From assembly GCF_054482525.1 (NCBI RefSeq), contig NZ_CM137006.1: DNA of 64,000 nucleotides, one strand, 5' to 3'. Position numbers and translations under genes: made by a program. Numbering within the stretch: the first letter of the stretch is position 1; every line of letters starts with the position of its first letter. Below are positions 17,526 to 34,104 of this stretch, piece after piece. A model generated the notes under the pieces. It was not told the origin of the DNA and did not search any database. It was given only the letters and a program-made list of their open reading frames with translations.

Positions 17526-20500
17526 ATGAAAAGAATGTTAATCAACGCAACTCAGCAGGAAGAGTTGCGCGTTGCCCTTGTAGATGGGCAGCGTCTGTAT
17601 GACCTGGATATCGAAAGTCCAGGGCACGAGCAGAAAAAGGCAAACATCTACAAAGGTAAAATCACCCGCATTGAACCGAGTCTGGAAGCTGCTTTTGTTG
17701 ATTACGGCGCTGAACGTCACGGTTTCCTCCCACTAAAAGAAATTGCCCGCGAATATTTCCCTGCTAACTACAGTGCTCATGGTCGTCCCAACATTAAAGA
17801 TGTGTTGCGTGAAGGTCAGGAAGTCATTGTTCAGATCGATAAAGAAGAGCGCGGCAACAAAGGCGCGGCATTAACCACCTTTATCAGTCTGGCGGGTAGC
17901 TATCTGGTTCTGATGCCGAACAACCCGCGCGCGGGTGGCATTTCTCGTCGTATCGAAGGCGACGACCGTACCGAATTAAAAGAAGCACTGGCAAGCCTTG
18001 AACTGCCGGAAGGCATGGGGCTTATCGTGCGCACCGCTGGCGTCGGCAAATCTGCTGAGGCGCTGCAATGGGATTTAAGCTTCCGTCTGAAACACTGGGA
18101 AGCCATCAAAAAAGCCGCTGAAAGCCGCCCAGCTCCGTTCCTGATTCATCAGGAGAGCAACGTCATCGTTCGCGCATTCCGCGATTACTTACGTCAGGAC
18201 ATCGGCGAAATCCTTATCGATAACCCGAAAGTGCTCGAACTGGCACGCCAGCATATCGCTGCATTAGGTCGCCCGGATTTCAGCAGCAAAATCAAACTGT
18301 ACACCGGCGAGATCCCGCTGTTCAGCCACTACCAGATCGAGTCACAGATTGAGTCCGCCTTCCAGCGTGAAGTTCGTCTGCCATCCGGTGGTTCCATTGT
18401 TATCGACAGCACCGAAGCGTTAACCGCCATCGACATCAACTCCGCACGCGCGACCCGCGGCGGCGATATCGAAGAAACCGCGTTTAACACCAACCTCGAA
18501 GCTGCCGATGAGATTGCTCGTCAGCTGCGCCTGCGTGACCTCGGCGGCCTGATTGTTATCGACTTCATCGACATGACGCCAGTACGCCACCAGCGTGCGG
18601 TAGAAAACCGTCTGCGTGAAGCGGTGCGTCAGGACCGTGCGCGTATTCAAATCAGCCATATTTCTCGCTTTGGCCTGCTGGAAATGTCCCGTCAGCGCCT
18701 GAGCCCATCACTGGGTGAATCCAGCCATCACGTCTGCCCGCGCTGCTCCGGTACCGGTACCGTGCGTGACAACGAATCGCTGTCGCTCTCTATTCTGCGT
18801 CTGATCGAAGAAGAAGCGCTGAAAGAGAACACCCAGGAAGTTCACGCCATTGTTCCTGTGCCAATCGCATCTTACCTGCTGAATGAAAAACGTTCTGCAG
18901 TGAATGCGATTGAGACTCGTCAGGACGGTGTGCGCTGTGTGATTGTGCCAAACGATCAGATGGAAACCCCGCACTACCATGTGCTGCGCGTGCGCAAAGG
19001 GGAAGAAACCCCAACCTTAAGCTACATGCTGCCGAAGCTGCATGAAGAAGCGATGGCGCTGCCGTCTGAAGAAGAGTTCGCTGAACGTAAGCGTCCGGAA
19101 CAACCTGCGCTGGCTACCTTTGCCATGCCGGATGTGCCGCCAGCACCAACCCCAGCTGAACCTGCCGCGCCTGTTGTAGCCCCAGCACCTAAAGCTGCAA
19201 CGGCAACACCAGCATCTCCTGCACAACCAGGGTTGTTGAGCCGCTTCTTCGGCGCACTGAAAGCGCTGTTCAGCGGTGGTGAAGAAACCAAACCGACCGA
19301 GCAACCAGCACCGAAAGCAGAAGCGAAACCGGAACGTCAACAGGATCGTCGCAAGCCTCGTCAGAACAACCGCCGTGACCGTAATGAGCGCCGCGATACC
19401 CGTAGTGAACGTACTGAAGGCAGCGATAATCGCGAAGAAAACCGTCGTAATCGTCGCCAGGCTCAGCAGCAAACTGCCGAGACGCGTGAGAGCCGTCAGC
19501 AGGCTGAGGTAACGGAAAAAGCGCGTACCACCGACGAGCAGCAAGCGCCGCGTCGTGAACGTAGCCGCCGCCGTAACGATGATAAACGTCAGGCGCAACA
19601 AGAAGCGAAGGCGCTGAATGTTGAAGAGCAATCTGTTCAGGAAACCGAACAGGAAGAACGTGTACGTCCGGTTCAGCCGCGTCGTAAACAGCGTCAGCTC
19701 AATCAGAAAGTGCGTTACGAGCAAAGCGTAGCCGAAGAAGCGGTAGTCGCACCGGTGGTTGAAGAAACTGTCGCTGCCGAACCAATTGTTCAGGAAGCGC
19801 CAGCTCCACGCACAGAACTGGTGAAAGTCCCGCTGCCAGTCGTAGCGCAAGCTGCACCAGAACAGCAAGAAGAGAACAATGCCGATAACCGTGACAACGG
19901 TGGCATGCCGCGTCGTTCTCGCCGCTCGCCTCGTCACCTGCGCGTGAGTGGTCAGCGTCGTCGTCGCTATCGTGACGAGCGTTATCCAACCCAATCGCCA
20001 ATGCCGTTGACCGTAGCGTGCGCATCTCCGGAACTGGCCTCTGGCAAAGTCTGGATCCGCTATCCAATTGTACGTCCGCAAGATGTAAAGGTCGAAGAGC
20101 AGCGCGAACAGGAAGAAGTACAAGTGCAGCCGATGGTGACTGAGGTCCCTGTCGCCGCCGCTGTCGAACCTGTTGTTAGCGCACCGGTTGTTGAAGAAGT
20201 GGCTGAAGTTGTAGAAGCCCCTGTTCAGGTTGCCGAACCGCAACCGGAAGTGGTTGAAACGACGCATCCTGAAGTAATTGCCGCCGCGGTAACTGAACAG
20301 CCGCAGGTGATTACCGAGTCTGATGTTGCCGTAGCCCAGGAAGTTGCAGAACACGCAGAACCGGTGGTTGAACCGCAGGAAGAGACGGCTGATATTGAAG
20401 AAGTTGCCGAAACTGCTGAGGTTGTGGTTGCTGAACCTGAAGTCGTTGCTCAACCTGCCGCGCCAGTCGTCGCTGAAGTCGCAGCAGAAGTTGAAACGGT

Positions 20501-20711
20501 AGCCGCGGTTAAACCTGAGGTCACCGTTGAGCATAACCACGCTACCGCGCCAATGACGCGCGCTCCGGCACCGGAATATGTTCCGGAGGCACCGCGTCAC
20601 AGTGACTGGCAGCGCCCTACTTTTGCCTTCGAAGGTAAAGGTGCTGCAGGTGGTCATACGGCAACGCATCATGCCTCTGCCGCTCCTGCGCGTCCGCAAC
20701 CTGTTGAGTAA
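17526..20711 (+). CDS. rne: Ribonuclease E
   Basis: ORF track 1061 aa; N-terminal S1/catalytic domain, Arg-rich RNA-binding segment, acidic low-complexity C-terminal scaffold. Confidence 0.98.
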
Positions 20712-20730
20712 TAATTAGCTCAAGTAATCA

Positions 20731-20760
20731 AGCCCTGGTAACTGCCAGGGCTTTTTTATT
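20731..20760 (+). terminator. rne intrinsic terminator
   Basis: AGCCCTGG-TAACTGCC-AGGGCT hairpin followed by TTTTTT. Confidence 0.75.
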
Positions 20761-20828
20761 TCATGTTTGAATCAACATATTAAAATTCATCAAATGGCAT
20801 CCTTGCTAACCAACAATGCAAAATAGGC

Positions 20829-20866
20829 AAAAAAAATGCCCGCCCCGGCGATCCCAGAGCGGGCAG
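20829..20866 (-). terminator. flgL intrinsic terminator
   Basis: GC-rich hairpin (GCCCGC...GCGGGC) followed by U8 on the minus strand. Confidence 0.65.
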
Positions 20867-20906
20867 ACAAAACATACCCAGTTTCATGATATGTTTTAAA
20901 GCGAGC

Positions 20907-21860
20907 TTATTTGTTGAGCTGGAAGAGCGACAATCCCTGCATATCGGTAAATGCTTTATACGATGCCTGCAATGCCGTTTGCTGCATGATGTAAGATGAA
21001 ATAGTTGCATTCCAGTCCACATCAACCAGATCGCTCATCTGCTGCGTTTGCCCTAAAGCGCGATCGCTACCTAATGAATCCAGCGACTCCAGTTCGTTCA
21101 GCTGCGTGCCTAATTCCGCGCGAACAGTCAGCACATTGTTCAGCGAGTTTTTCAGTCCGCGGTTGGTTTTATCCAGTGCCGCAGCGGCGGTTTCTTTATC
21201 CGCTTCGCTATCCGCGACCGGCGTTTTCAGGGCTGCGATGGCGCTATCCAGCATGGCAAAAAGATTTGTTTCAGAAGCGCTACCGTCTGGTTCCGCTACC
21301 GCGTTGCTGGTAATACTGTCGAAAATTTTGTCACCCGTGTGCCCTATCACCATCGAACGCGAAGCATCGACCTGTTGTTTAATACTTTCTGCTCCACCGA
21401 CGTATTTCCCTTTCTCTTCGCTAAACGGCGCAGTCTCTGTTTTATAACCGGCAAAAATGTAGCGCCCGTTACCGTCAGTGGTGTTCGCCAGATTCAGCAA
21501 CTGGTCACGAAGCCCCTGAATATCCGTAGCCAGCGAGGCCCGGTCATCGTCACTCAAGGTGCCATTGCTGGCGTAGACAATTTTTTCCTGAGCATTCTGG
21601 ATAGCAGTGGTGACCTGGCTAAGTACACTCTCTTCCAGTGACACTTTTTGAGTGGCGAAAGTACGCGCCAGCGTGTACTGGCTGTTTTGCGCCTGTGCCT
21701 GGGAGAGAACAACAGCTTGTGATGCAGCAATGGGATCATCTGAAGGGTTAACGACTCGCTTACCCGTCGACATCTGTTCGCCGTACTTCATCCATTCTGC
21801 CTGAGAGTTGGTGATGCCGCGCATGTTTTGCTGGTACATCATCTGGGTACTGAAACGCAT
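20907..21860 (-). CDS. flgL: Flagellar hook-filament junction protein 2
   Basis: ORF track 317 aa; flagellin-like N/C termini. Confidence 0.93.
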   Translation of the reverse strand: MRFSTQMMYQQNMRGITNSQAEWMKYGEQMSTGKRVVNPSDDPIAASQAVVLSQAQAQNSQYTLARTFATQKVSLEESVLSQVTTAIQNAQEKIVYASNGTLSDDDRASLATDIQGLRDQLLNLANTTDGNGRYIFAGYKTETAPFSEEKGKYVGGAESIKQQVDASRSMVIGHTGDKIFDSITSNAVAEPDGSASETNLFAMLDSAIAALKTPVADSEADKETAAAALDKTNRGLKNSLNNVLTVRAELGTQLNELESLDSLGSDRALGQTQQMSDLVDVDWNATISSYIMQQTALQASYKAFTDMQGLSLFQLNK

Positions 21861-21871
21861 TTTATCTCCCC

Positions 21872-23515
21872 TTAGCGAATGTTAATCAGCGCATCAAAAA
21901 TCGCGTTTGCCGTCTGCAGAACCTGCGCATTCGCGAGGTAATACTGCTGAAAACGTTGCAGATTTCCGTACTCCTCATCGAGATTGACACCGGAAATCGA
22001 CTGCTGCTGATTGGAAAGCTGCGTCACCACATTACCTTGCGTGGTGCTACTGGTTTTCAACGTCGCGGTTTTATTACCGATATCACTCACTAACGAGGCA
22101 TAAGCGTCGTTAAAGGATTTCGCACCGCCCACCGTTTTACTGTTGCTTTGCAGATCGAGCAGGGCCTGACCGTTGCGGTTGTCGCTATCACCCGCATCTT
22201 CTGCGCTCGCCATGGCGATTTTCGCTTCGTCGGTGATTAATACATCCATGTTGACGATGGCGTCACTTACCGGTTTCAGTGTGAAGCTGTCGTTAACGGC
22301 AGGCGTTCCTGTAAACGTCAACTCCAGACCATCAAATGCCACTTTACCGTTGGCATCCGGCGTCACCGTAAAAGTGGTATTACTGGCAAGGCGGGTGACC
22401 TGCCACTGATTATTATCGAACGAGATTTTGTAATCTGTCGCCAGTACCGCGGAGGCATCAGTTACCGTTGCACCGATCGCAACGTCACCTTTGTTTTTCG
22501 TGTTTTGCAGAACCGCGGGCTTACCGATAGCAAAGAAATCTTCACCGGCATCGCCGTTAGCATCAAATCCGGCTTTGTGTTGGGTGTTGAAAGCCTCGGC
22601 AAATGCCAGCGCCAGTTGTCCAAGCGTATTACGCGTCTGGTCAAGATCCTGAGAACGGAATGTCAGAATGCCGCCCAGCGACCCGGTATTCAGTAATTTC
22701 TCCGGGATCTCAATATTGCCTGCCGTCCCATCAACATAAGCGACAGTCGTACGAGAAGGGTCGGCGCTGGAAGGAACTGCCGCAAGTTGCCGCGCCGTAC
22801 TTCCCTGAACCAGTGAGTAGCCATTGGCCATCGTGATGTTATAAGTGCCACCATCCTGAACGCTGACTTCTACGCCAACAATCTGGTTTAATTCGCTCAC
22901 CAGTTGATCGCGTTGATCCAGCAGATTGTTAGGTGACGCCCCTGCCCCCACGCCTGTCAGGCGGGAGATCTGATCGTTCAGGCTGGCGATTTGTTTAGCG
23001 TAATTGTTGATCTGATCAACGCTGGCACCTATCGCGATATTGACCTGTTTGTCCTGGTCGCGCAGATATTGATCGGTGGTTTTAAACTGATTCACCAATC
23101 CTTCTGATTTCCCAATCAGCGCCTGGCGCGCTGCCGGATCTTCCGCGTTACTCACCAGCGTTTGCAGGCTGGTGAAGAAATCCTGCATCTGTGTTGCCAG
23201 CGAAGAGGTACTGGTGGAGAGCATATTGTCGATTTTCGACATCTGCTCATAGCGGGCGGTCAGGCCGCTACTTTGCGTCTGCGCAGCACGTAACTGGTTG
23301 GTAATAAACGCATCATACTCACGCTGCACACCAGAAACGTAGACGCCATTGCCAACCCAGCCGCCAGCGCCCAACGTGCTATTGGCCTGCGCCATAATAG
23401 TGGTTTGGCGGGTATATCCGGCAACGTTATAGCTGGAGATATTATTACTTGCCGTATTTAACGCCGCCTGGGCCGCGTTCAGTCCGCTCATGGCGTTATT
23501 GATCAAGCTGGACAT
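21872..23515 (-). CDS. flgK: Flagellar hook-associated protein 1
   Basis: ORF track 547 aa. Confidence 0.93.
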   Translation of the reverse strand: MSSLINNAMSGLNAAQAALNTASNNISSYNVAGYTRQTTIMAQANSTLGAGGWVGNGVYVSGVQREYDAFITNQLRAAQTQSSGLTARYEQMSKIDNMLSTSTSSLATQMQDFFTSLQTLVSNAEDPAARQALIGKSEGLVNQFKTTDQYLRDQDKQVNIAIGASVDQINNYAKQIASLNDQISRLTGVGAGASPNNLLDQRDQLVSELNQIVGVEVSVQDGGTYNITMANGYSLVQGSTARQLAAVPSSADPSRTTVAYVDGTAGNIEIPEKLLNTGSLGGILTFRSQDLDQTRNTLGQLALAFAEAFNTQHKAGFDANGDAGEDFFAIGKPAVLQNTKNKGDVAIGATVTDASAVLATDYKISFDNNQWQVTRLASNTTFTVTPDANGKVAFDGLELTFTGTPAVNDSFTLKPVSDAIVNMDVLITDEAKIAMASAEDAGDSDNRNGQALLDLQSNSKTVGGAKSFNDAYASLVSDIGNKTATLKTSSTTQGNVVTQLSNQQQSISGVNLDEEYGNLQRFQQYYLANAQVLQTANAIFDALINIR

Positions 23516-23548
23516 GGAGGTTCCTTATAAGCCTTCAATTACAGAGTA

Positions 23549-23575
23549 TTATCGGCAGCGCCCCGCCGGACTTGA
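23549..23575 (-). promoter_or_regulatory. Candidate sigma28 (FliA) class 3 promoter for flgKL
   Basis: Minus-strand reading TCAAGTCC-N11-GCCGATAA in flgJ-flgK gap; -10 is an exact sigma28 consensus, -35 partial. Confidence 0.6.
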
Positions 23576-23580
23576 GTTAT

Positions 23581-24522
23581 TCAGAACAGATTATCAATGT
23601 TCATGCTGTAGGTTTTGCTCACCTTGTCGCTTATCGATTTCATCTGCTGAATCATGTTGGTGAGTTTGCGGGCATAGTGAGGATCGGTGGCATAGCCCGC
23701 GTCCTGTAGGGCCTGCGCCCCCTGCTCCGCACTCGCGGCGGTCGTCACGGCGGCGTAGCGCGGGTTACGCGTTAACAGCCCAACGTAATCCGACAATGCT
23801 TCCAGATACGAGCTGTAGACCCGAAACTTCGCTTTTACTTTCTTCGCTTCGCCATTTTCATATTCAGTCGTGGTGATTTCAGTGACTGGCCCTTTCCAGT
23901 TGCCAGAGGCTTTGACGCCAAACAGGTTATAGCTCGGCTCGCCGTTTTCACGGCGGATTTGCCGTTGTCCCCAGCCAGATTCCAGCGCCGCCTGAGCGAG
24001 GATCAAATGATGTGGCACACCGCTTTGCTGGCTTGCCAGTTGGGCGGGCAACGAGAGTTGCGCGAGGAATGCTTTACTGTCACCCGGCAGCGAATCATCG
24101 TAGTTACGTGGTACGGCCTTTTGCACCAGCTGCGAAAGCGTCTGATTTTGATAACGCACCACGGTTTCGAGCGGGAATTTCATCGGTGCTGCTGCCGTGG
24201 GCTCCTCTGGCAATGGTTGTTCTGGCGTCATCTGTTTAACCATCATCTCTGCCAGCCCCAGACCTTTGCCCGCCGTCATCTGTTGGGCAATCTGCTGGTC
24301 ATACATACTGGTATACAGGCGAGTGTGCTCGCTGCTGAACAGGCCATCTTTTGGTAAAGCGTCGCGCATGCTTTTCAACATCATCTGCACGAACATCCCT
24401 TCCACCTGGCGGGCCACCGGACGGATATTTGCCGCCGGATCTTCGCCCGCTTTCGCCTTAAGTTCGTTGAGCGATTGTGCATCCCAGGCCGCACTTGCCA
24501 GTAGTTTGCTGTCGCTGATCAT
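23581..24522 (-). CDS. flgJ: Flagellar rod assembly protein / peptidoglycan hydrolase
   Basis: ORF track 323 aa; start moved to [16 protein letters not shown] (313 aa), overlapping flgI stop by 1 nt. Confidence 0.9.
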   Translation of the reverse strand: MISDSKLLASAAWDAQSLNELKAKAGEDPAANIRPVARQVEGMFVQMMLKSMRDALPKDGLFSSEHTRLYTSMYDQQIAQQMTAGKGLGLAEMMVKQMTPEQPLPEEPTAAAPMKFPLETVVRYQNQTLSQLVQKAVPRNYDDSLPGDSKAFLAQLSLPAQLASQQSGVPHHLILAQAALESGWGQRQIRRENGEPSYNLFGVKASGNWKGPVTEITTTEYENGEAKKVKAKFRVYSSYLEALSDYVGLLTRNPRYAAVTTAASAEQGAQALQDAGYATDPHYARKLTNMIQQMKSISDKVSKTYSMNIDNLF

Positions 24523-25619
24523 CAGATGATTTCCAGTTTTGCCCGCAGACATCCCGCACTTTGCATTGATTGCAGTATGGACATCAGATCCATCGGCGTA
24601 GCGCCCAGCGCATTGAGCGCACGCACCACGTTATTGAGGCTGGCGCTGGAACGTACGCTTTGCAGCGAACCGCCGCTCTGGCGTAAATCGATCTGCGTTT
24701 GTGGAGTAACCACAGTCTGCCCACCACCAAACGGTGTATCTGGCTGGCTGACATTGGCCTGACGATTAACTGTAACTGAGAGATTCCCCTGCGCTACCGC
24801 GCAGCTGTCGAGGGTCACTTCGCGATTCATCACCACCGAACCAGTGCGCGAGTTAATCACTACTTTAGCGTCCTGCGGGGTAACATTAACCTGCATATTC
24901 TGGATATCGGCAAGGAAACGGACCTGGGAACTGTTGCCACTCGGTACGCGCACCTGAATAGTCCGCGCATCTAACGCGGTGGCGCTGCCATATCCACGCA
25001 CACGGTTGATGGTGTCAGCGATTTGCTGCGCCATACTGAAATCTTCGTCGTTAAGTTGCAAATTAAGGGTATTCCCGACGCCAAACTGGCTGGGCAATTC
25101 ACGTTCAATAACCGCACCATTGGTGATCCGTCCACCGTTCAGTTGGTTCACCTGAACACTGCTACCGCCAGCGGAGGCTCCTGCGCCGCCAACCAGAATA
25201 TTGCCCTGCGCCAGCGCATACACCTGACTGTCAACGCCCTTAAGCGGTGTCATCAACAACGTACCTCCACGCAAGCTTTTGGCATTACCCATGGAAGAAA
25301 CCACCACATCGATGGTTTGCCCCTGACGTCCAAACGGTGGAAGTGACGCCGTCACCATTACCGCAGCGACGTTTTTTAGCTGCATATTGGTGCCCGTCGG
25401 AACGGTAATTCCCAGCTGTGAGAGCATGTTATTAAGCGTTTGTGTGGTAAACGGCGTCTGAGTTGTCTGGTCACCTGTACCATCAAGCCCCACCACCAGG
25501 CCATAGCCAATCAGTGAGTTTTGCCTTACCCCCTGAACACTAGTGAGATCGCGAATACGCTCCGCCTGAGCCACCGTGGTAACCAGTAGAAGAATTAATG
25601 CAGAGAGAAATTTAATCAC
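24522..25619 (-). CDS. flgI: Flagellar P-ring protein
   Basis: ORF track 366 aa; probable GTG start giving [12 protein letters not shown] (365 aa); signal peptide. Confidence 0.9.
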
Positions 25620-25630
25620 CACAGCCTCAC

Positions 25631-26329
25631 TTACATTGGCGACAGGTTAAGGAAGAAACGCTGCAACCAGCCCATATTTTGCGCTTCGTTAATGTAGCCA
25701 TTGCCTACGTATTCAATGCGCGCATCCGCCACCTGAGTAGACGGTACGGTATTGCTGCCGCTGATAGTGCGTGGATTAACCACGCCAGAGAAGCGAATAA
25801 ATTCGGTACCCTGATTAATGGCGATCTGTTTTTCACCCACCACATGCAGGTTGCCGTTGACCAGTACCTGGTCAACCGTCACCGTCAACGTGCCGCTAAA
25901 GGTATTGCTGGCATTGGCCCCGCCTTTTCCGTTAAACGTGTTACCACCGGAGGCTTCGACATCGGCACGAGCGTTACCAAACAGCCCCTGCAAATAGCGC
26001 GGCACAGTATCAAAGCCAAAATTAGTTTTACCGTCACGGCTGGCATTCGCAGAGGAGCTTTTGCTGGCGCTGACGTTCTCCTGCAACACGATGGTCAGCG
26101 TATCGCCAATATTGCGTGGTCGACGATCTTCAAACAGCGGTTGATAGCCATAGTTAATCGGCTGAGCAGACTGGAAAATAGAACCGTTGGCGACGGGCGT
26201 CGGACCGGGAACCGGTTGTGCACTGGTCGCCCCCTGCACCAGCGGCGTGGAGGGTATCCAGGCGCAGCCGGTTAGTGAAAGCACCAACAAGCTGGAAATG
26301 GCATAAGTATGCGCAGCGTTTTTTTGCAT
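25631..26329 (-). CDS. flgH: Flagellar L-ring lipoprotein
   Basis: ORF track 237 aa; start moved to [22 protein letters not shown] (232 aa, lipobox). Confidence 0.9.
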
Positions 26330-26381
26330 GGCTATCATCTTCAAAAATCAATAAACCGGTGAACCTGCCACCGGGTATGCC

Positions 26382-27182
<801 letters not shown>

Positions 27183-27300
27183 TTAGTGACAAGCAGAGCA
27201 GAAGCACGCGACGGTGCGAATTTCCCCTCACCCTAACCTCTCCCAAAATGGGCGAGAGAATAGTCCGCGCGCTTTTATTGCAATGTCATCAATCGTTTAA

Positions 27301-28056
27301 TTAACTCATCGACAGCAGTTGGTTGGCACGGCCTGCGTTATCATCGACGCTGCTGATCACCTTCATCTGCATTTCAAAACGCCGCGCGCTGGCAATCATG
27401 TCGCTCATTGCCGCAACGGCATTGACGTTACTGCCTTCCAGAACACCCGACATCACACGCAAGGTTGGATCTGCCTGCAGTACCGGCCCACGCGTGGTCT
27501 GGGTTTCTGCGCTTAAACGAAAAATGCCGTCGTCACCGCGCTGCACTTCGCTGCCCGTGGCTTTCACCAGCTTCAGACGCCCCACTGGCGCAACCGTATT
27601 TGCCGGATCGCCCGGATTGAGCACCGAGATTGTGCCATCGGCAGCAATCGTGATTTCCGCCCCTTCCGGCACAGCAATTGGCCCCGCCTCGCCTATCACC
27701 GGATGCCCCTGAATTGTCAGTTGCCCGGTGGGATCAACCTGAATGCTGCCATTACGCGTATACCCTTCGCTGCCGTCAGCGGTCTGCACGGCCAGCCAGC
27801 CATCCTGCTGCAACGCAACGTCCAGCGGGCGCGAGGTGTAATCCATCTTGCCGGGCGTCATGTCTGCACCCGGCGTTGACGCCGTTACCAGCGTGCGCGT
27901 GGGCAGTGAAAGCCCTTCCACCGGCACTGCGCGCAAGGCGTTTAACTGCGCGCGAAAACCGGGCGTAGAGGCATTGGCCAGATTACTGGCGGTTACCGCC
28001 TGTTGATTCAGCGTCTGGCTGGCTGCTCCCATCGCGGTATAAATTGCGTGATCCAT
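27301..28056 (-). CDS. flgF: Flagellar proximal rod protein
   Basis: ORF track 251 aa. Confidence 0.93.
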   Translation of the reverse strand: MDHAIYTAMGAASQTLNQQAVTASNLANASTPGFRAQLNALRAVPVEGLSLPTRTLVTASTPGADMTPGKMDYTSRPLDVALQQDGWLAVQTADGSEGYTRNGSIQVDPTGQLTIQGHPVIGEAGPIAVPEGAEITIAADGTISVLNPGDPANTVAPVGRLKLVKATGSEVQRGDDGIFRLSAETQTTRGPVLQADPTLRVMSGVLEGSNVNAVAAMSDMIASARRFEMQMKVISSVDDNAGRANQLLSMS

Positions 28057-28075
28057 TGAGCTATCCCGTCAGCGA

Positions 28076-29281
28076 TTAGCGTAAGTTAACTAGCGTGTTG
28101 AGGATCTGGTCCTGGGTTTTGATGGTCTGGGCGTTAGACTGATAGTTACGCTGGGCAACGATCATATTGACCAGTTCTTTACTGAGATCGACGTTGGACG
28201 CTTCCAGCGCACCGTTGGTCAGGGTGCCAAAGTTGCCCGTCCCGGCTGTCCCTAACAGCGCCACGCCAGAAGATTGCGTCGCAGACCAGACGTTGTCGCC
28301 TTCGGATGCCAGACCTTCGTTGTTGGCAAAGTTCGCCAGTACAATCTGCCCCAGCAGTTGGGTTTGTTCGTTGGAATAGTTGCCGACAACCGTACCGTCA
28401 TCATTGATTTGATAACTCACCAGATCGCCCGGTTTGTAGCCGTTCTGGGTGGTTGCCACAATGTTGTTAGCGCCGGTATTTTGCTGCATGGAGTTGAGGA
28501 AGCTCAGGCTAAACGTGGCGGGATCTGCGCCGTTAATTGCGCCAGTAGTAATATTCTCTGTTGGATTTGAAGTCAGAACGCCATTGGCATTAAACACCAG
28601 CGTCATTGCATGGTCAGCTGTGCCTGTTGGATCACTGCTATCCTGGGTGTAGACCTGCCAGTTATTATCCCCGGTCTTCACAAAATACACGCTCATGTCA
28701 TGAGCATTACCCTGACTGTCGAAAACAGTCACCGAACCTTTTTTGTTATAGCTATCCGCATTGCTGGCATCAAATGCGTTTACAGAGGGAAGCGGATCAC
28801 TGGAATTCAGGTTGATCTGCATCGACGCCGTGGTGGTAGCTTTCGCTGCCATCAGGGTATTCGGGATCGAAATATTGGTCGGATTCGCCCCTTGCTGAAT
28901 AGTCGGCGGCGTACCGGTTGCCGGGTAACCCGTCAGCTGTAAACCTTGCATATTCACCAGGTTACGGTTTTCATCCAGCTTAAATTGTCCGTTACGGCTG
29001 TAGAACACCGAACCGTTGCTGTCCACCAGACGGAAAAAACCGTTCTGGCTGATAGCAACGTCCAGACCACGCCCGGTGTTGGTGGTCGTGCCATCGGTAA
29101 AGTCCTGGGTGATACCGGCAACTTTTACCCCCAGTCCCACTTTCGAACCGGCAAACATATCGGCAAAAGAGGCCGTGCCTGATTTAAAGCCGTAGGTGGC
29201 GGAGTTGGCGATATTGTTGCCAATAACATCGAGGTTGGTGGCGGCAGCGTTTAATCCGCTAACCGCTTGAGAAAAGGCCAT
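28076..29281 (-). CDS. flgE: Flagellar hook protein
   Basis: ORF track 401 aa; conserved termini MAFSQAVSGLNAA ... ILNTLVNLR. Confidence 0.93.
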   Translation of the reverse strand: MAFSQAVSGLNAAATNLDVIGNNIANSATYGFKSGTASFADMFAGSKVGLGVKVAGITQDFTDGTTTNTGRGLDVAISQNGFFRLVDSNGSVFYSRNGQFKLDENRNLVNMQGLQLTGYPATGTPPTIQQGANPTNISIPNTLMAAKATTTASMQINLNSSDPLPSVNAFDASNADSYNKKGSVTVFDSQGNAHDMSVYFVKTGDNNWQVYTQDSSDPTGTADHAMTLVFNANGVLTSNPTENITTGAINGADPATFSLSFLNSMQQNTGANNIVATTQNGYKPGDLVSYQINDDGTVVGNYSNEQTQLLGQIVLANFANNEGLASEGDNVWSATQSSGVALLGTAGTGNFGTLTNGALEASNVDLSKELVNMIVAQRNYQSNAQTIKTQDQILNTLVNLR

Positions 29282-29305
29282 GACTGACTCCTGAAATGTG
29301 AAGGC

Positions 29306-30001
29306 TTAAATTATCTGCCGTACTTCGTCGAGGGTGGTGGTGCCGTAAGTGCCGAGATCCAGCGTATTACCGTTGTTGCCGCGGATCACACCCTGCACCA
29401 GAGCAAACTGCAGCGGCTGGGCAACCAGTTGTGTACCACCGTTACTGGCGCTAATCGCTACGTTGTAAGAACCGTTCGGCGCAGTGCTGCCGTCAGTCAA
29501 CGTACCGTCCCAGGTGAAACTGTGGACTCCGGCGGTCAGTTCACCGATATCAATGGTACGGACAACCGCACCGTTTTTATCGGTGATGGTGGCCGTAACT
29601 TTGTCTGCCGCCTGTTGCAGCTCAACACCAAACGGCGTGGTCGTGGTCACAGCCCCTTCTTCACTGCCTGTTCCCGCAAGAACAGTGGTGCCGGGGATCA
29701 TCACGCCGTGACCGATCAGGTTACTGGCCTGTAACGACTGGCTGTTATCAATCTGTCCGGAAATAGATCCGAGCGTGGTATTGAGTTTTTCAATCCCGCT
29801 GACCGTGCTGATTTGTGCCAGTTGCGACGTCAGCTCGTTGTTTTCCATTGGATTGGTCGGGTCCTGGTTTTTCAGCTGCGCCACCAACAAAGTCAGAAAA
29901 CTGCTTTGTAAATCTGCGGCGTTGCTGCCCGTGAGCGAACTACTACTGGTGGTGCTGACGCCGGTATTTGTCGGATCGGTGGTGGTTACCGCAATGGACA
30001 T
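29306..30001 (-). CDS. flgD: Flagellar hook capping/scaffold protein
   Basis: ORF track 231 aa. Confidence 0.92.
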   Translation of the reverse strand: MSIAVTTTDPTNTGVSTTSSSSLTGSNAADLQSSFLTLLVAQLKNQDPTNPMENNELTSQLAQISTVSGIEKLNTTLGSISGQIDNSQSLQASNLIGHGVMIPGTTVLAGTGSEEGAVTTTTPFGVELQQAADKVTATITDKNGAVVRTIDIGELTAGVHSFTWDGTLTDGSTAPNGSYNVAISASNGGTQLVAQPLQFALVQGVIRGNNGNTLDLGTYGTTTLDEVRQII

Positions 30002-30012
30002 AGCTTTCTCCT

Positions 30013-30417
30013 TTATTGACCGAGCGTAAGGGTTTTCAGCATCATGCTTTTCACCGTGTTGAGCACTTCAACATTGGCCTGATAGCTGCGTGATGCCGAC
30101 ATGGTGTTAACCATCTCCCCGACGACATCAACGTTTGGCATTTTCACGTAGCCCTTTGCATCCGCCAGCGGATTACCCGGTTCATAAACCAGTTTGTCCG
30201 GGGCCTGACTTTCTATAACATCGGCCACCTTTACGCCGCCTGTCGCAGCACCTGGTGCAGCGTTAACCTGAAATACCACCTGTTTTGCCCGATATGGCTG
30301 TCCATCGGGACCGGTCACGCTATCAGCATTCGCCAGATTACTGGCCGCCACGTTCAGGCGCTGGGACTGGGCAGTTAACGCCGAACCGGCGATATCAAAA
30401 ATATTCAGCAGTGCCAT
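30013..30417 (-). CDS. flgC: Flagellar proximal rod protein
   Basis: ORF track 134 aa. Confidence 0.95.
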
Positions 30418-30420
30418 CCG

Positions 30421-30837
30421 TTAATTTCCACTCTGTAAAACGTTCATCATGCCTTTGATTTGCCCGCTCAACGCGCTAAGGCTCATCTGGTATTGCAGGC
30501 TGTTATCGGCAAACTGGGTGCGTTCGCGATCCATATCGACGGTATTACCGTCAAGCGAAGGCTGGTCCGGAATACGGTATTGCAGTTCTGCGGTAGGAGG
30601 CGTCAGCGCCTGCGCCGGAATGTGTTGCGTTGAGGTCATCGTCAGTGCAACCACGCTTGTTGCATCCCGTCCACGTTGCATGACTTTTTTAAGTTCACTG
30701 GCAAAATCGATATCGCGAGCCTGATAACCAGGGGTATCGGCATTGGCGATGTTTGCTGCCAGCACTTCCTGACGCTGGGCGCGCAGATTGAGCGCCTCTT
30801 GTTGAAAACGTAAGGCGGCGTCGAGCTTATCGAGCAT
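30421..30837 (-). CDS. flgB: Flagellar proximal rod protein
   Basis: ORF track 138 aa. Confidence 0.95.
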
Positions 30838-30992
30838 ATCTCCTCCGCAGGTATCAAAATTCTGCCATCAGCTTAAATGCCTTTACGCGCGCGTTATCGG
30901 CGGAATAAACGCAAAATGGGTCGCTATTTATGCCGTTGATAGTCATTGCGGACAGGTACAATTCACGTTGTAGAAATGGCTGGGGGGCGAAA
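30838..30992. promoter_or_regulatory. Divergent flgB / flgA class 2 (FlhDC-dependent) promoter region
   Basis: 155-bp gap between divergent flgB and flgA starts; role from established flagellar regulon knowledge; binding sites not resolved here. Confidence 0.5.
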
Positions 30993-31652
30993 ATGCTGGC
31001 AATAAAACGTAGCGTGGCGATCATCGCGATACTGTTCAGTCCGTTAAGTGCGGCGAGCAATCTCACATCGCAATTGCACACCTTTTTTAGCGCCCAGCTC
31101 GCGGGGGTAAGTGATGAGGTTCGTGTTTCTATTCGTACAGCGCCCAATCTACTACCGCCGTGCGAGCAGCCATTGCTTTCGATGAGCAATAATTCCCGCC
31201 TGTGGGGCAATGTGAATGTGTTGGCACGCTGCGGTAACGACAAACGATATTTACAGGTTAATGTGCAGGCCACAGGAAATTATGTGGTTGCCGCAATGCC
31301 CATTGTGCGGGGAGGAAAGCTGGAAGCTGGCAATGTCAAACTGAAACGCGGACGGCTGGACACCTTGCCACCGCGTACGGTGCTGGATATCAATCAACTT
31401 GTTGATGCCGTTAGCCTGCGCGATCTATCACCCGATCAACCTATCCAGTTAACCCAGTTTCGCCAGGCATGGCGGGTAAAAGCGGGACAACGCGTCAACG
31501 TGATCGCCAGCGGTGATGGGTTTAGCGCCAACGCAGAAGGTCAGGCGCTGAACAATGCTGCCGTCGCACAGAATGCGCGGGTGCGCATGGTATCGGGACA
31601 AGTGGTCAGCGGCGTTGTTGATGCAGATGGGAATATTCTTATAAACCTGTAA
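30993..31652 (+). CDS. flgA: Flagellar P-ring assembly chaperone
   Basis: ORF track 240 aa; start moved to MLAIKRSVAIIAILFSPLSAA (219 aa, signal peptide). Confidence 0.88.
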   Translation: MLAIKRSVAIIAILFSPLSAASNLTSQLHTFFSAQLAGVSDEVRVSIRTAPNLLPPCEQPLLSMSNNSRLWGNVNVLARCGNDKRYLQVNVQATGNYVVAAMPIVRGGKLEAGNVKLKRGRLDTLPPRTVLDINQLVDAVSLRDLSPDQPIQLTQFRQAWRVKAGQRVNVIASGDGFSANAEGQALNNAAVAQNARVRMVSGQVVSGVVDADGNILINL

Positions 31653-31657
31653 GCTGT

Positions 31658-31684
31658 TAAAGATTACCCGTCCCTTGCCGATAA
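31658..31684 (+). promoter_or_regulatory. sigma28 (FliA) class 3 promoter for flgMN
   Basis: TAAAGATT-N11-GCCGATAA read directly, 44 nt upstream of flgM start; near-perfect match to sigma28 consensus TAAAGTTT-N11-GCCGATAA. Confidence 0.8.
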
Positions 31685-31727
31685 ATAAGCAACACATGAT
31701 AAAAGCGCCCTCAATGAGGAATAAACC

Positions 31728-32021
31728 ATGAGTATTGATCGCACTTCGCCTCTGAAGCCCGTAAGCACCGTTCAACCGCGCGAAACCACTGACGCGCCGG
31801 TAACGAACACCCGGGCGGCAAAAACAACCGCCTCCACCAGCACCAGTGTGACGTTAAGCGACGCGCAAGCAAAACTGATGCAACCCGGCAGCAGTGATAT
31901 CAATCTTGAACGTGTCGAAGCGTTAAAACTGGCGATTCGTAACGGTGAACTAAAAATGGACACCGGCAAAATTGCCGATGCGCTGATCAACGAAGCGCAG
32001 CAAGACTTGCAGAGTAACTGA
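31728..32021 (+). CDS. flgM: Anti-sigma-28 factor
   Basis: ORF track 97 aa. Confidence 0.93.
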
Positions 32022-32025
32022 TCGT

Positions 32026-32442
32026 ATGACACGTCTTGCAGAGATCCTCGACCAGATGTCCGCTGTGCTTAACGATCTCAAAACGGTAATGGATCAAGAG
32101 CAGCAACATCTCTCTATGGGGCAGATCAACGGCAGCCAGTTGCAATGGATTACAGAACAAAAAAGCTCACTGCTGGCGACGCTGGATTACCTCGAACAGT
32201 TACGCAGGAAAGAACCCAATTCAGCAAATAGCGTTGATATTAGTCAACGCTGGCAGGATATTACTGTGAAAACGCAGCAACTACGCCAAATGAATCAACA
32301 TAACGGCTGGTTACTGGAAGGACAGATTGAGCGCAATCAACAGGCGCTGGAAATGTTGAAACCGCATCAGGAACCGACGCTATATGGAGCGAACGGTCAG
32401 ACCTCAACAACTCATCGCGGCAGTAAAAAGATTTCGATCTGA
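32026..32442 (+). CDS. flgN: Flagellar export chaperone for FlgK/FlgL
   Basis: ORF track 138 aa. Confidence 0.92.
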   Translation: MTRLAEILDQMSAVLNDLKTVMDQEQQHLSMGQINGSQLQWITEQKSSLLATLDYLEQLRRKEPNSANSVDISQRWQDITVKTQQLRQMNQHNGWLLEGQIERNQQALEMLKPHQEPTLYGANGQTSTTHRGSKKISI

Positions 32443-32481
32443 AGATTATCTCCGGCCTGCACTGCAGGCCGGAATACATTG

Positions 32482-34104
<1,623 letters not shown>

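Follow-up and report, generated by a model that had tools for sequence, protein, structure and literature searches.

The window, by which we mean the whole 64-kb stretch of DNA that was analysed, is E. coli chromosome and carries around the site of interest the standard gene order murJ / flgNMA / flgBCDEFGHIJKL / rne. On the minus strand, flgJ ends with the stop codon TGA at 23583-23581 and flgK starts with the ATG at 23515-23513, leaving between the two genes a gap of 65 bp (23580-23516, from the minus-strand reading of 23400-23760). The two genes were named after NCBIfam equivalog models and after the RefSeq annotation of E. coli genomes that are 100% identical; a 501-bp query around the site showed 100% identity to many complete E. 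coli chromosomes and matched 5425 of 5426 E. coli genomes, with flgJ and flgK annotated every time. The initial annotation had placed a sigma-28 promoter motif in this gap, and reading the minus strand gave exactly the same coordinates and sequence: TCAAGTCC-N11-GCCGATAA at 23575-23549, with its end 33 nt upstream of the ATG of flgK, whose strand it shares. The full pattern occurs as a single copy within the 64-kb window. The features of the promoter and of the transcription unit are the following:

23581..24522, minus strand: flgJ coding sequence (NCBIfam TIGR02541, 436.9 bits, cutoff 193), last gene of the class 2 flgB-J operon
23568..23575, minus strand: -35 element TCAAGTCC, non-consensus, with 3 mismatches to TAAAGTTT; the same 8-mer stands in the published FliA ChIP-seq motif
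23557..23567, minus strand: 11-nt spacer GGCGGGGCGCT, fixed in length and variable in sequence
23549..23556, minus strand: -10 element GCCGATAA, exact match to the sigma-28 consensus
23540..23543, minus strand: predicted transcription start in TGTA, probably G23542 or A23540, from the 18-22 bp rule
23521..23526, minus strand: flgK Shine-Dalgarno sequence AAGGAA, 5 nt before the ATG, with the AGGA core ending 6 nt before the ATG
21872..23515, minus strand: flgK coding sequence, hook-filament junction protein 1, 547 aa (ORF list; NCBIfam TIGR02492, 340.4 bits, cutoff 170.75; RefSeq), first gene of the class 3 unit
20907..21860, minus strand: flgL coding sequence, 317 aa (ORF list; NCBIfam TIGR02550, 354 bits, cutoff 127.2; annotation), second gene of the class 3 unit
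20828..20906, minus strand: flgL 3'UTR with an intrinsic terminator (terminator scan: stem 20865-20837, then a T-run)

The position of the transcription start was predicted from the geometry of other FliA promoters. According to the Fitzgerald 2017 preprint, at well-characterised flagellar FliA promoters transcription starts 18-22 bp downstream of the centre of the 28-nt motif; at the flgK site this centre falls at 23561.5, and the rule leads to a predicted start at 23543-23540. The 5'UTR of the transcript from the flgK promoter (flgKp) would measure about 25-28 nt and would contain the AAGGAA at 23526-23521. In the literature searched we found no directly mapped start site for E. coli flgKp. 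In an alignment of 10 sequences, described below, G23542 and T23541 are invariant, as are 10 of the 11 columns running from the Shine-Dalgarno sequence to the flgK ATG (23526-23516).

Strength of the Sigma-28 Motif and Chance Expectation

The canonical sigma-28 consensus is TAAAGTTT-N11-GCCGATAA, and the flgK site matches it at 13 of 16 positions with the correct spacing. It shares with the consensus the exact -10, the 11-nt spacer and the T directly 5' of GCCGATAA, and it differs in the -35, where a C replaces the A at position 2 and CC replaces TT at positions 7-8. Since the zero expectation obtained for the exact 16-base pattern is trivial, a weight matrix was used as a more honest test. 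This FliA matrix was built from 23 FliA ChIP-seq sites with FAT>4 (Fitzgerald 2014, Table 2, PMC4183435), leaving out of the training the 2 sites located in the window; it reproduces the consensus -10 exactly, and the -35 as TAAAGATT, one base off TAAAGTTT.

On this matrix the flgK site scores 15.8 bits, where the known sites range from 9.2 to 28.3 bits, and it ranks fourth in the window when both strands are considered. The two halves contribute very unequally, as the initial annotation had noticed by describing an exact -10 and a weaker -35: the -10 half reaches 14.8 bits, against a median of 11.3 in the 23 training sites, and the -35 half only 2.5 bits, against a median of 6.1, with 8 of the 23 known sites being weaker still.

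The score has to be read against its chance level. Random Markov-1 windows of 64 kb contain on average 0.285 sites of at least 15.8 bits, and 49 of 200 such windows contained at least one; in other words, a sigma-28 match this good turns up by chance about once per three or four 64-kb windows, and the motif is therefore not significant window-wide. In the 65-nt gap and on the correct strand, instead, the expectation of such a score is ~1.4e-4, and it is only because of this position between flgJ and flgK that the score from sequence alone becomes convincing. In a blind scan the flgK site would not justify a promoter call; the inference of a promoter rests on position and conservation, and the motif score is not what carries it.

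The best sigma-28 match in the window, at 27.3 bits, is flgMp, the class 3 promoter of flgMN, found as TAAAGATTACCCGTCCCTTGCCGATAA at 31658-31684 on the plus strand, upstream of flgM and a short way past the end of flgA; its motif is identical to an entry of Fitzgerald 2014 Table 2 with a FAT of 48 (PMC4183435). Two further sites score above the flgK site. One of them, CAAAGTTACGGCCACCATCACCGATAAA (17.6 bits), lies in sense orientation inside flgD at 29576-29603 on the minus strand and is absent from the 52 FliA ChIP-seq sites that have been published; chance, occlusion of the site or binding below the threshold may explain this. The other, TACAGAATTGTCGCATAATGCCGTTAAC (17.7 bits), lies at 7978-8005 on the plus strand, antisense in pabC (ORF 7784-8593, minus strand), with no published FliA site. 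Here GCCGTTAA takes the place of GCCGATAA, and the A replaced is near-invariant, being present in 22 of the 23 known sites; this site illustrates how frequent good-looking chance matches to sigma-28 are.

The -10 octamer was also considered by itself. The window contains 12 copies of GCCGATAA, against 2.47 expected from dinucleotide shuffles. We rejected this excess as a sigma-28 signal: the octamer ranks only 101st of 48,173 8-mers, others reaching up to 23 copies, and for this reason the excess is attributed to ordinary coding-sequence composition, which dinucleotide shuffles do not keep. Class 2 flagellar promoters are known to bear sigma-28-like -10 sequences. An exact GCCGATAA is present on the flgB strand in the divergent flgA-flgB intergenic region (30893-30920, minus strand), with no -35 match and a score of 10.9 bits. 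No FliA peak has been published for this region, which is an FlhDC-bound class 2 control region with an FlhDC peak at 1130152 (Fitzgerald 2014, Table 1, PMC4183435).

Conservation of the Two Elements

The set used for conservation was collected by scanning species-representative genomes with a degenerate pattern placed in the N-terminal coding sequence of FlgK and not in the promoter. The scan gave 9 loci, from E. albertii, E. whittamii, another Escherichia species, 2 divergent E. coli and 4 Citrobacter, which make 10 sequences together with the window; Salmonella and genera further away were not recovered with the coding-sequence anchor, whose pattern was probably too strict.

Among these 10 Escherichia and Citrobacter sequences all 8 columns of the -35 element and all 8 columns of the -10 element are invariant. 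The spacer has 4 invariant columns out of 11, and its length is 11 nt in 10/10 sequences. Around the two elements, none of the 5 columns between the flgJ stop and the -35 is invariant, 9 of 22 are invariant from the -10 to the Shine-Dalgarno sequence, and 50 of 85 in the 3' coding region of flgJ. Taking the other non-coding columns as a neutral rate (13/38), the probability of finding 16 of 16 columns invariant is ~3.5e-8. Two invariant 8-mers held at a fixed distance by a variable spacer are the footprint expected of a bipartite sigma-factor site.

Published Evidence for flgKp

The promoter is already known in E. coli from mapping with ChIP-seq, SELEX and in vitro transcription. At 1137565 there is a FliA ChIP-seq peak with a FAT of 47; it contains the motif TCAAGTCCGGCGGGTCGCTGCCGATAAT, centred at 1137556, and was assigned to flgKL (Fitzgerald 2014, Table 2, PMC4183435). 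With the RpoF holoenzyme, genomic SELEX yielded a high peak (27.2) within the flgJ>flgK spacer; the same study cites in vitro transcription under direct RpoF control (Shimada 2017, PMC5493296). In the reconstituted (purified) PURE system, sigma-28 strongly activated a flgK promoter construct (bioRxiv 10.1101/024604), and according to that preprint and to PMC5493296 the K-12 promoter is also annotated in EcoCyc/RegulonDB. Where the Fitzgerald 2017 preprint names the promoters that failed in lacZ fusions, flgK is not among them.

On the expression side, when fliA is overexpressed in an flhD deletion, flgK expression returns to at least the wild-type level, and RT-PCR over the flgJ-flgK boundary places flgKL also in the FlhDC-dependent flgB operon (PMC4183435). 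In a fliA deletion the flgK RNA decreased from 318 to 138 (~2.3-fold), a change not flagged as significant (Fitzgerald 2014, PMC4183435), and the authors concluded that, under the conditions used, the dual-regulated genes are mostly transcribed from class 2 promoters (PMC4183435). In Salmonella, the flgKL and fliDST promoters of class 3 are required for swarming and for the rapid repair of sheared filaments, as summarised from Wozniak 2010 in PMC4183435.

The proposal of the initial annotation that flgKL is a late (class 3) unit thus finds support in the FliA ChIP-seq, RpoF SELEX and in vitro sigma-28 activation published for the E. coli site, and its further suggestion of an added read-through from flgB agrees with the published RT-PCR and with the gap, in which no terminator was found. 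The earlier reading, made from the letters of the sequence, was correct, and the promoter itself is textbook biology. To our knowledge, no FlhDC binding site or ChIP peak has been described upstream of flgK in E. coli.

The alignment of the window with K-12 MG1655 showed that the 65-bp gap is identical but for one base of the spacer. Compared with K-12 flgKp, the site has the same locus, strand relation, 65-bp gap, -35, -10, spacer length and downstream sequence to the flgK ATG; the one difference is position 23561, which is G in the window and T in K-12. The spacer sequence varies between species, and this change is therefore not expected to alter function. The binding of FliA holoenzyme in vivo and in vitro at the K-12 site, the activation of a flgK promoter construct and the read-through were established by published experiments, and by near-identity they should hold for the site in the window.

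How much flgKL mRNA comes from this promoter is a different matter. It could be argued that FliA holoenzyme does bind the site while flgKp works as a physiologically minor back-up, producing little flgKL mRNA in normal growth, and that the conservation reflects a niche use, for instance in repairing filaments, in swarming or in supplying FlgO. The weak -35 half speaks for such a reading; nevertheless, both elements are strictly conserved and the small RNA FlgO is markedly lost in a fliA deletion, which points to a real flux from the promoter under some conditions. We regard a merely minor role as possible, if rather unlikely, and it would refine the identification of the site as flgKp without contradicting it. 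The promoter is real, and its quantitative role depends on conditions.

Read-Through, Structure of the Gap and FlgO

The terminator scan found no terminator-like site on either strand of 23300-23900, and no sigma-70-like site was found in the flgJ-flgK gap. The gap region has a minimum free energy of -17.2 kcal/mol, against a mean of -21.1 for shuffled sequences (z = +1.27), hence it folds no better than shuffled sequence. Because the gap contains no terminator-like site and folds no better than the shuffles, read-through from flgJ is expected.

These data also bear on whether the conserved blocks could be constrained as RNA within the long flgB-L transcript, acting as a processing site or in the control of flgK translation, with no promoter involved. 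The gap is indeed transcribed within the polycistronic mRNA, and a small 6-bp hairpin, CGGCGG...CUGCCG, is possible over the spacer and the first part of the -10 element. However, an account of the conservation based on RNA structure is unsupported, because the gap folds no better than shuffled sequence; in addition, no Rfam family matched in 20000-32500, two invariant 8-mers at a fixed distance of 11 nt with a variable spacer describe a sigma-28 element and not a helix, and direct FliA binding data exist. We consider this possibility very improbable, and an RNA structure, a terminator or a processing element in the gap was rejected on the grounds of the absence of a terminator-like site, the z of +1.27 and the lack of an Rfam family.

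At the other end of the unit, the terminator scan placed after flgL a strong intrinsic terminator, whose stem at 20865-20837 has 12 pairs, 9 of which are G-C, and precedes T8. The sRNA FlgO, which binds Hfq and measures ~75 nt, is processed from the flgL 3'UTR and is sharply reduced in a fliA deletion (PMC10578931); Rfam contains no family for it. In position and size the ~80-nt flgL 3'UTR at 20828-20906 would correspond to FlgO, and flgKp would represent its sigma-28-dependent input.

The region between flgL and rne differs among E. coli. Some of them, e.g. CFSAN061763 (11895-12905 of the comparison locus), carry there an inserted pair formed by a GNAT toxin and a TacA antitoxin, and the insertion point is just beyond the flgL 3'UTR / FlgO region. 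The window, like K-12, is without the pair: with the rne stop ending at 20711 and the flgL stop at 20907, the convergent intergenic region spans 20712-20906.

A further gap of the operon was inspected, namely that between flgF and flgG (27165-27300, minus strand), which, at 136 bp, is unusually long for this operon. A weak RpoF SELEX peak of 6.7 has been reported between these two genes (Shimada 2017, PMC5493296). No sigma-28 motif that could explain it was found in this gap, the best score on the FliA matrix being -2.8 bits.

Comparison with Other FliA Promoters

Within the window, flgKp can be compared with flgMp, the other FliA promoter of the flg region. Both are nested in a class 2 unit (flgAMN in the case of flgMp), both are under dual control, and their FAT values are similar (47 for flgKp and 48 for flgMp). 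Unlike flgKp, with its 15.8 bits, flgMp has the near-consensus -35 TAAAGATT and reaches 27.3 bits. At the level of architecture the site also resembles the class 3 promoter of flgK in Salmonella enterica, where flgKL transcripts have two sources, the class 2 flgB promoter and a FliA-dependent promoter belonging to flgKL itself (Kutsukake and Ide 1995; Wozniak et al. 2010; both as cited in PMC4183435).

Discussion

Several lines of evidence lead us to identify the site in the flgJ-flgK gap as flgKp, the class 3 FliA (sigma-28) promoter of E. coli, and to place flgKL under dual class 2 and class 3 control; the probability that we attach to this reading is about 97%. Those traits of a class 3 promoter that sequences can show are present, namely a bipartite element with the right spacing, located upstream of flgK and on its strand, and with the conservation pattern described above; so is that of a dual unit, as no terminator separates the class 2 operon from the internal class 3 promoter. 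The same absence of a terminator and the ~2.3-fold decrease of flgK RNA in the fliA deletion would also suit a chance match, with read-through from the class 2 flgB promoter as the sole source of flgKL expression, as would the 0.285 equally good sites per random 64-kb window and the two higher-scoring sites at 7978-8005(+) and 29576-29603(-), which are not reported FliA peaks, but a FAT 47 peak at exactly the flgK motif, the SELEX peak of 27.2, the sigma-28 activation of the construct in vitro, the rescue of flgK by fliA overexpression in the flhD deletion, the invariance of both 8-mers in Escherichia and Citrobacter where spacer and flanks vary, and the ~1.4e-4 expectation in the 65-nt gap make this hardly credible, and it was rejected on position, conservation and the published binding and activation data.

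With the site taken as flgKp, the following mechanism can be proposed. RNA polymerase carrying FliA recognises the bipartite TCAAGTCC-N11-GCCGATAA in the flgJ-flgK gap and would begin to transcribe some 7-10 nt downstream of the -10, the exact start being a prediction. The resulting flgK-flgL mRNA would end at the intrinsic terminator after flgL, and its 3'UTR would be processed into the sRNA FlgO, of which flgKp presumably supplies a share. As there is no terminator after flgJ, flgK and flgL are also read through from the FlhDC-activated, sigma-70-dependent flgB promoter; two promoters feed flgKL, which is therefore under dual class 2 and class 3 control. FlgM keeps FliA inactive until the hook-basal body is complete, and thus flgKp would permit a late supply of the hook-filament junction proteins. 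In particular, with an internal promoter the cell could make these proteins at a late stage of assembly, or afterwards to repair filaments, and would not have to re-express the whole of flgB-J. This physiological role is suggested by analogy with the work on Salmonella.

The -35 element deserves a separate comment. That a non-consensus TCAAGTCC is invariant in Escherichia and Citrobacter might mean that a sub-optimal strength has been selected, or that the element has a second, unrecognised function; we mention this as an improbable, speculative idea. In the former case the -35 may tune, for example, the ratio of class 3 to class 2 transcription of flgKL, or the supply of FlgO; in the latter, a regulator may, for example, bind there, or the bases may act as a signal within the flgB-L mRNA made by read-through. 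If either were true, it would go modestly beyond the view of flgKp as merely a weaker class 3 promoter.

As for the biology of the flagellar system, flgKp belongs to a canonical set of six or seven class 3 flagellar promoters, and a flgKp unit ending in FlgO would link this promoter to the recent work on post-transcriptional flagellar control.
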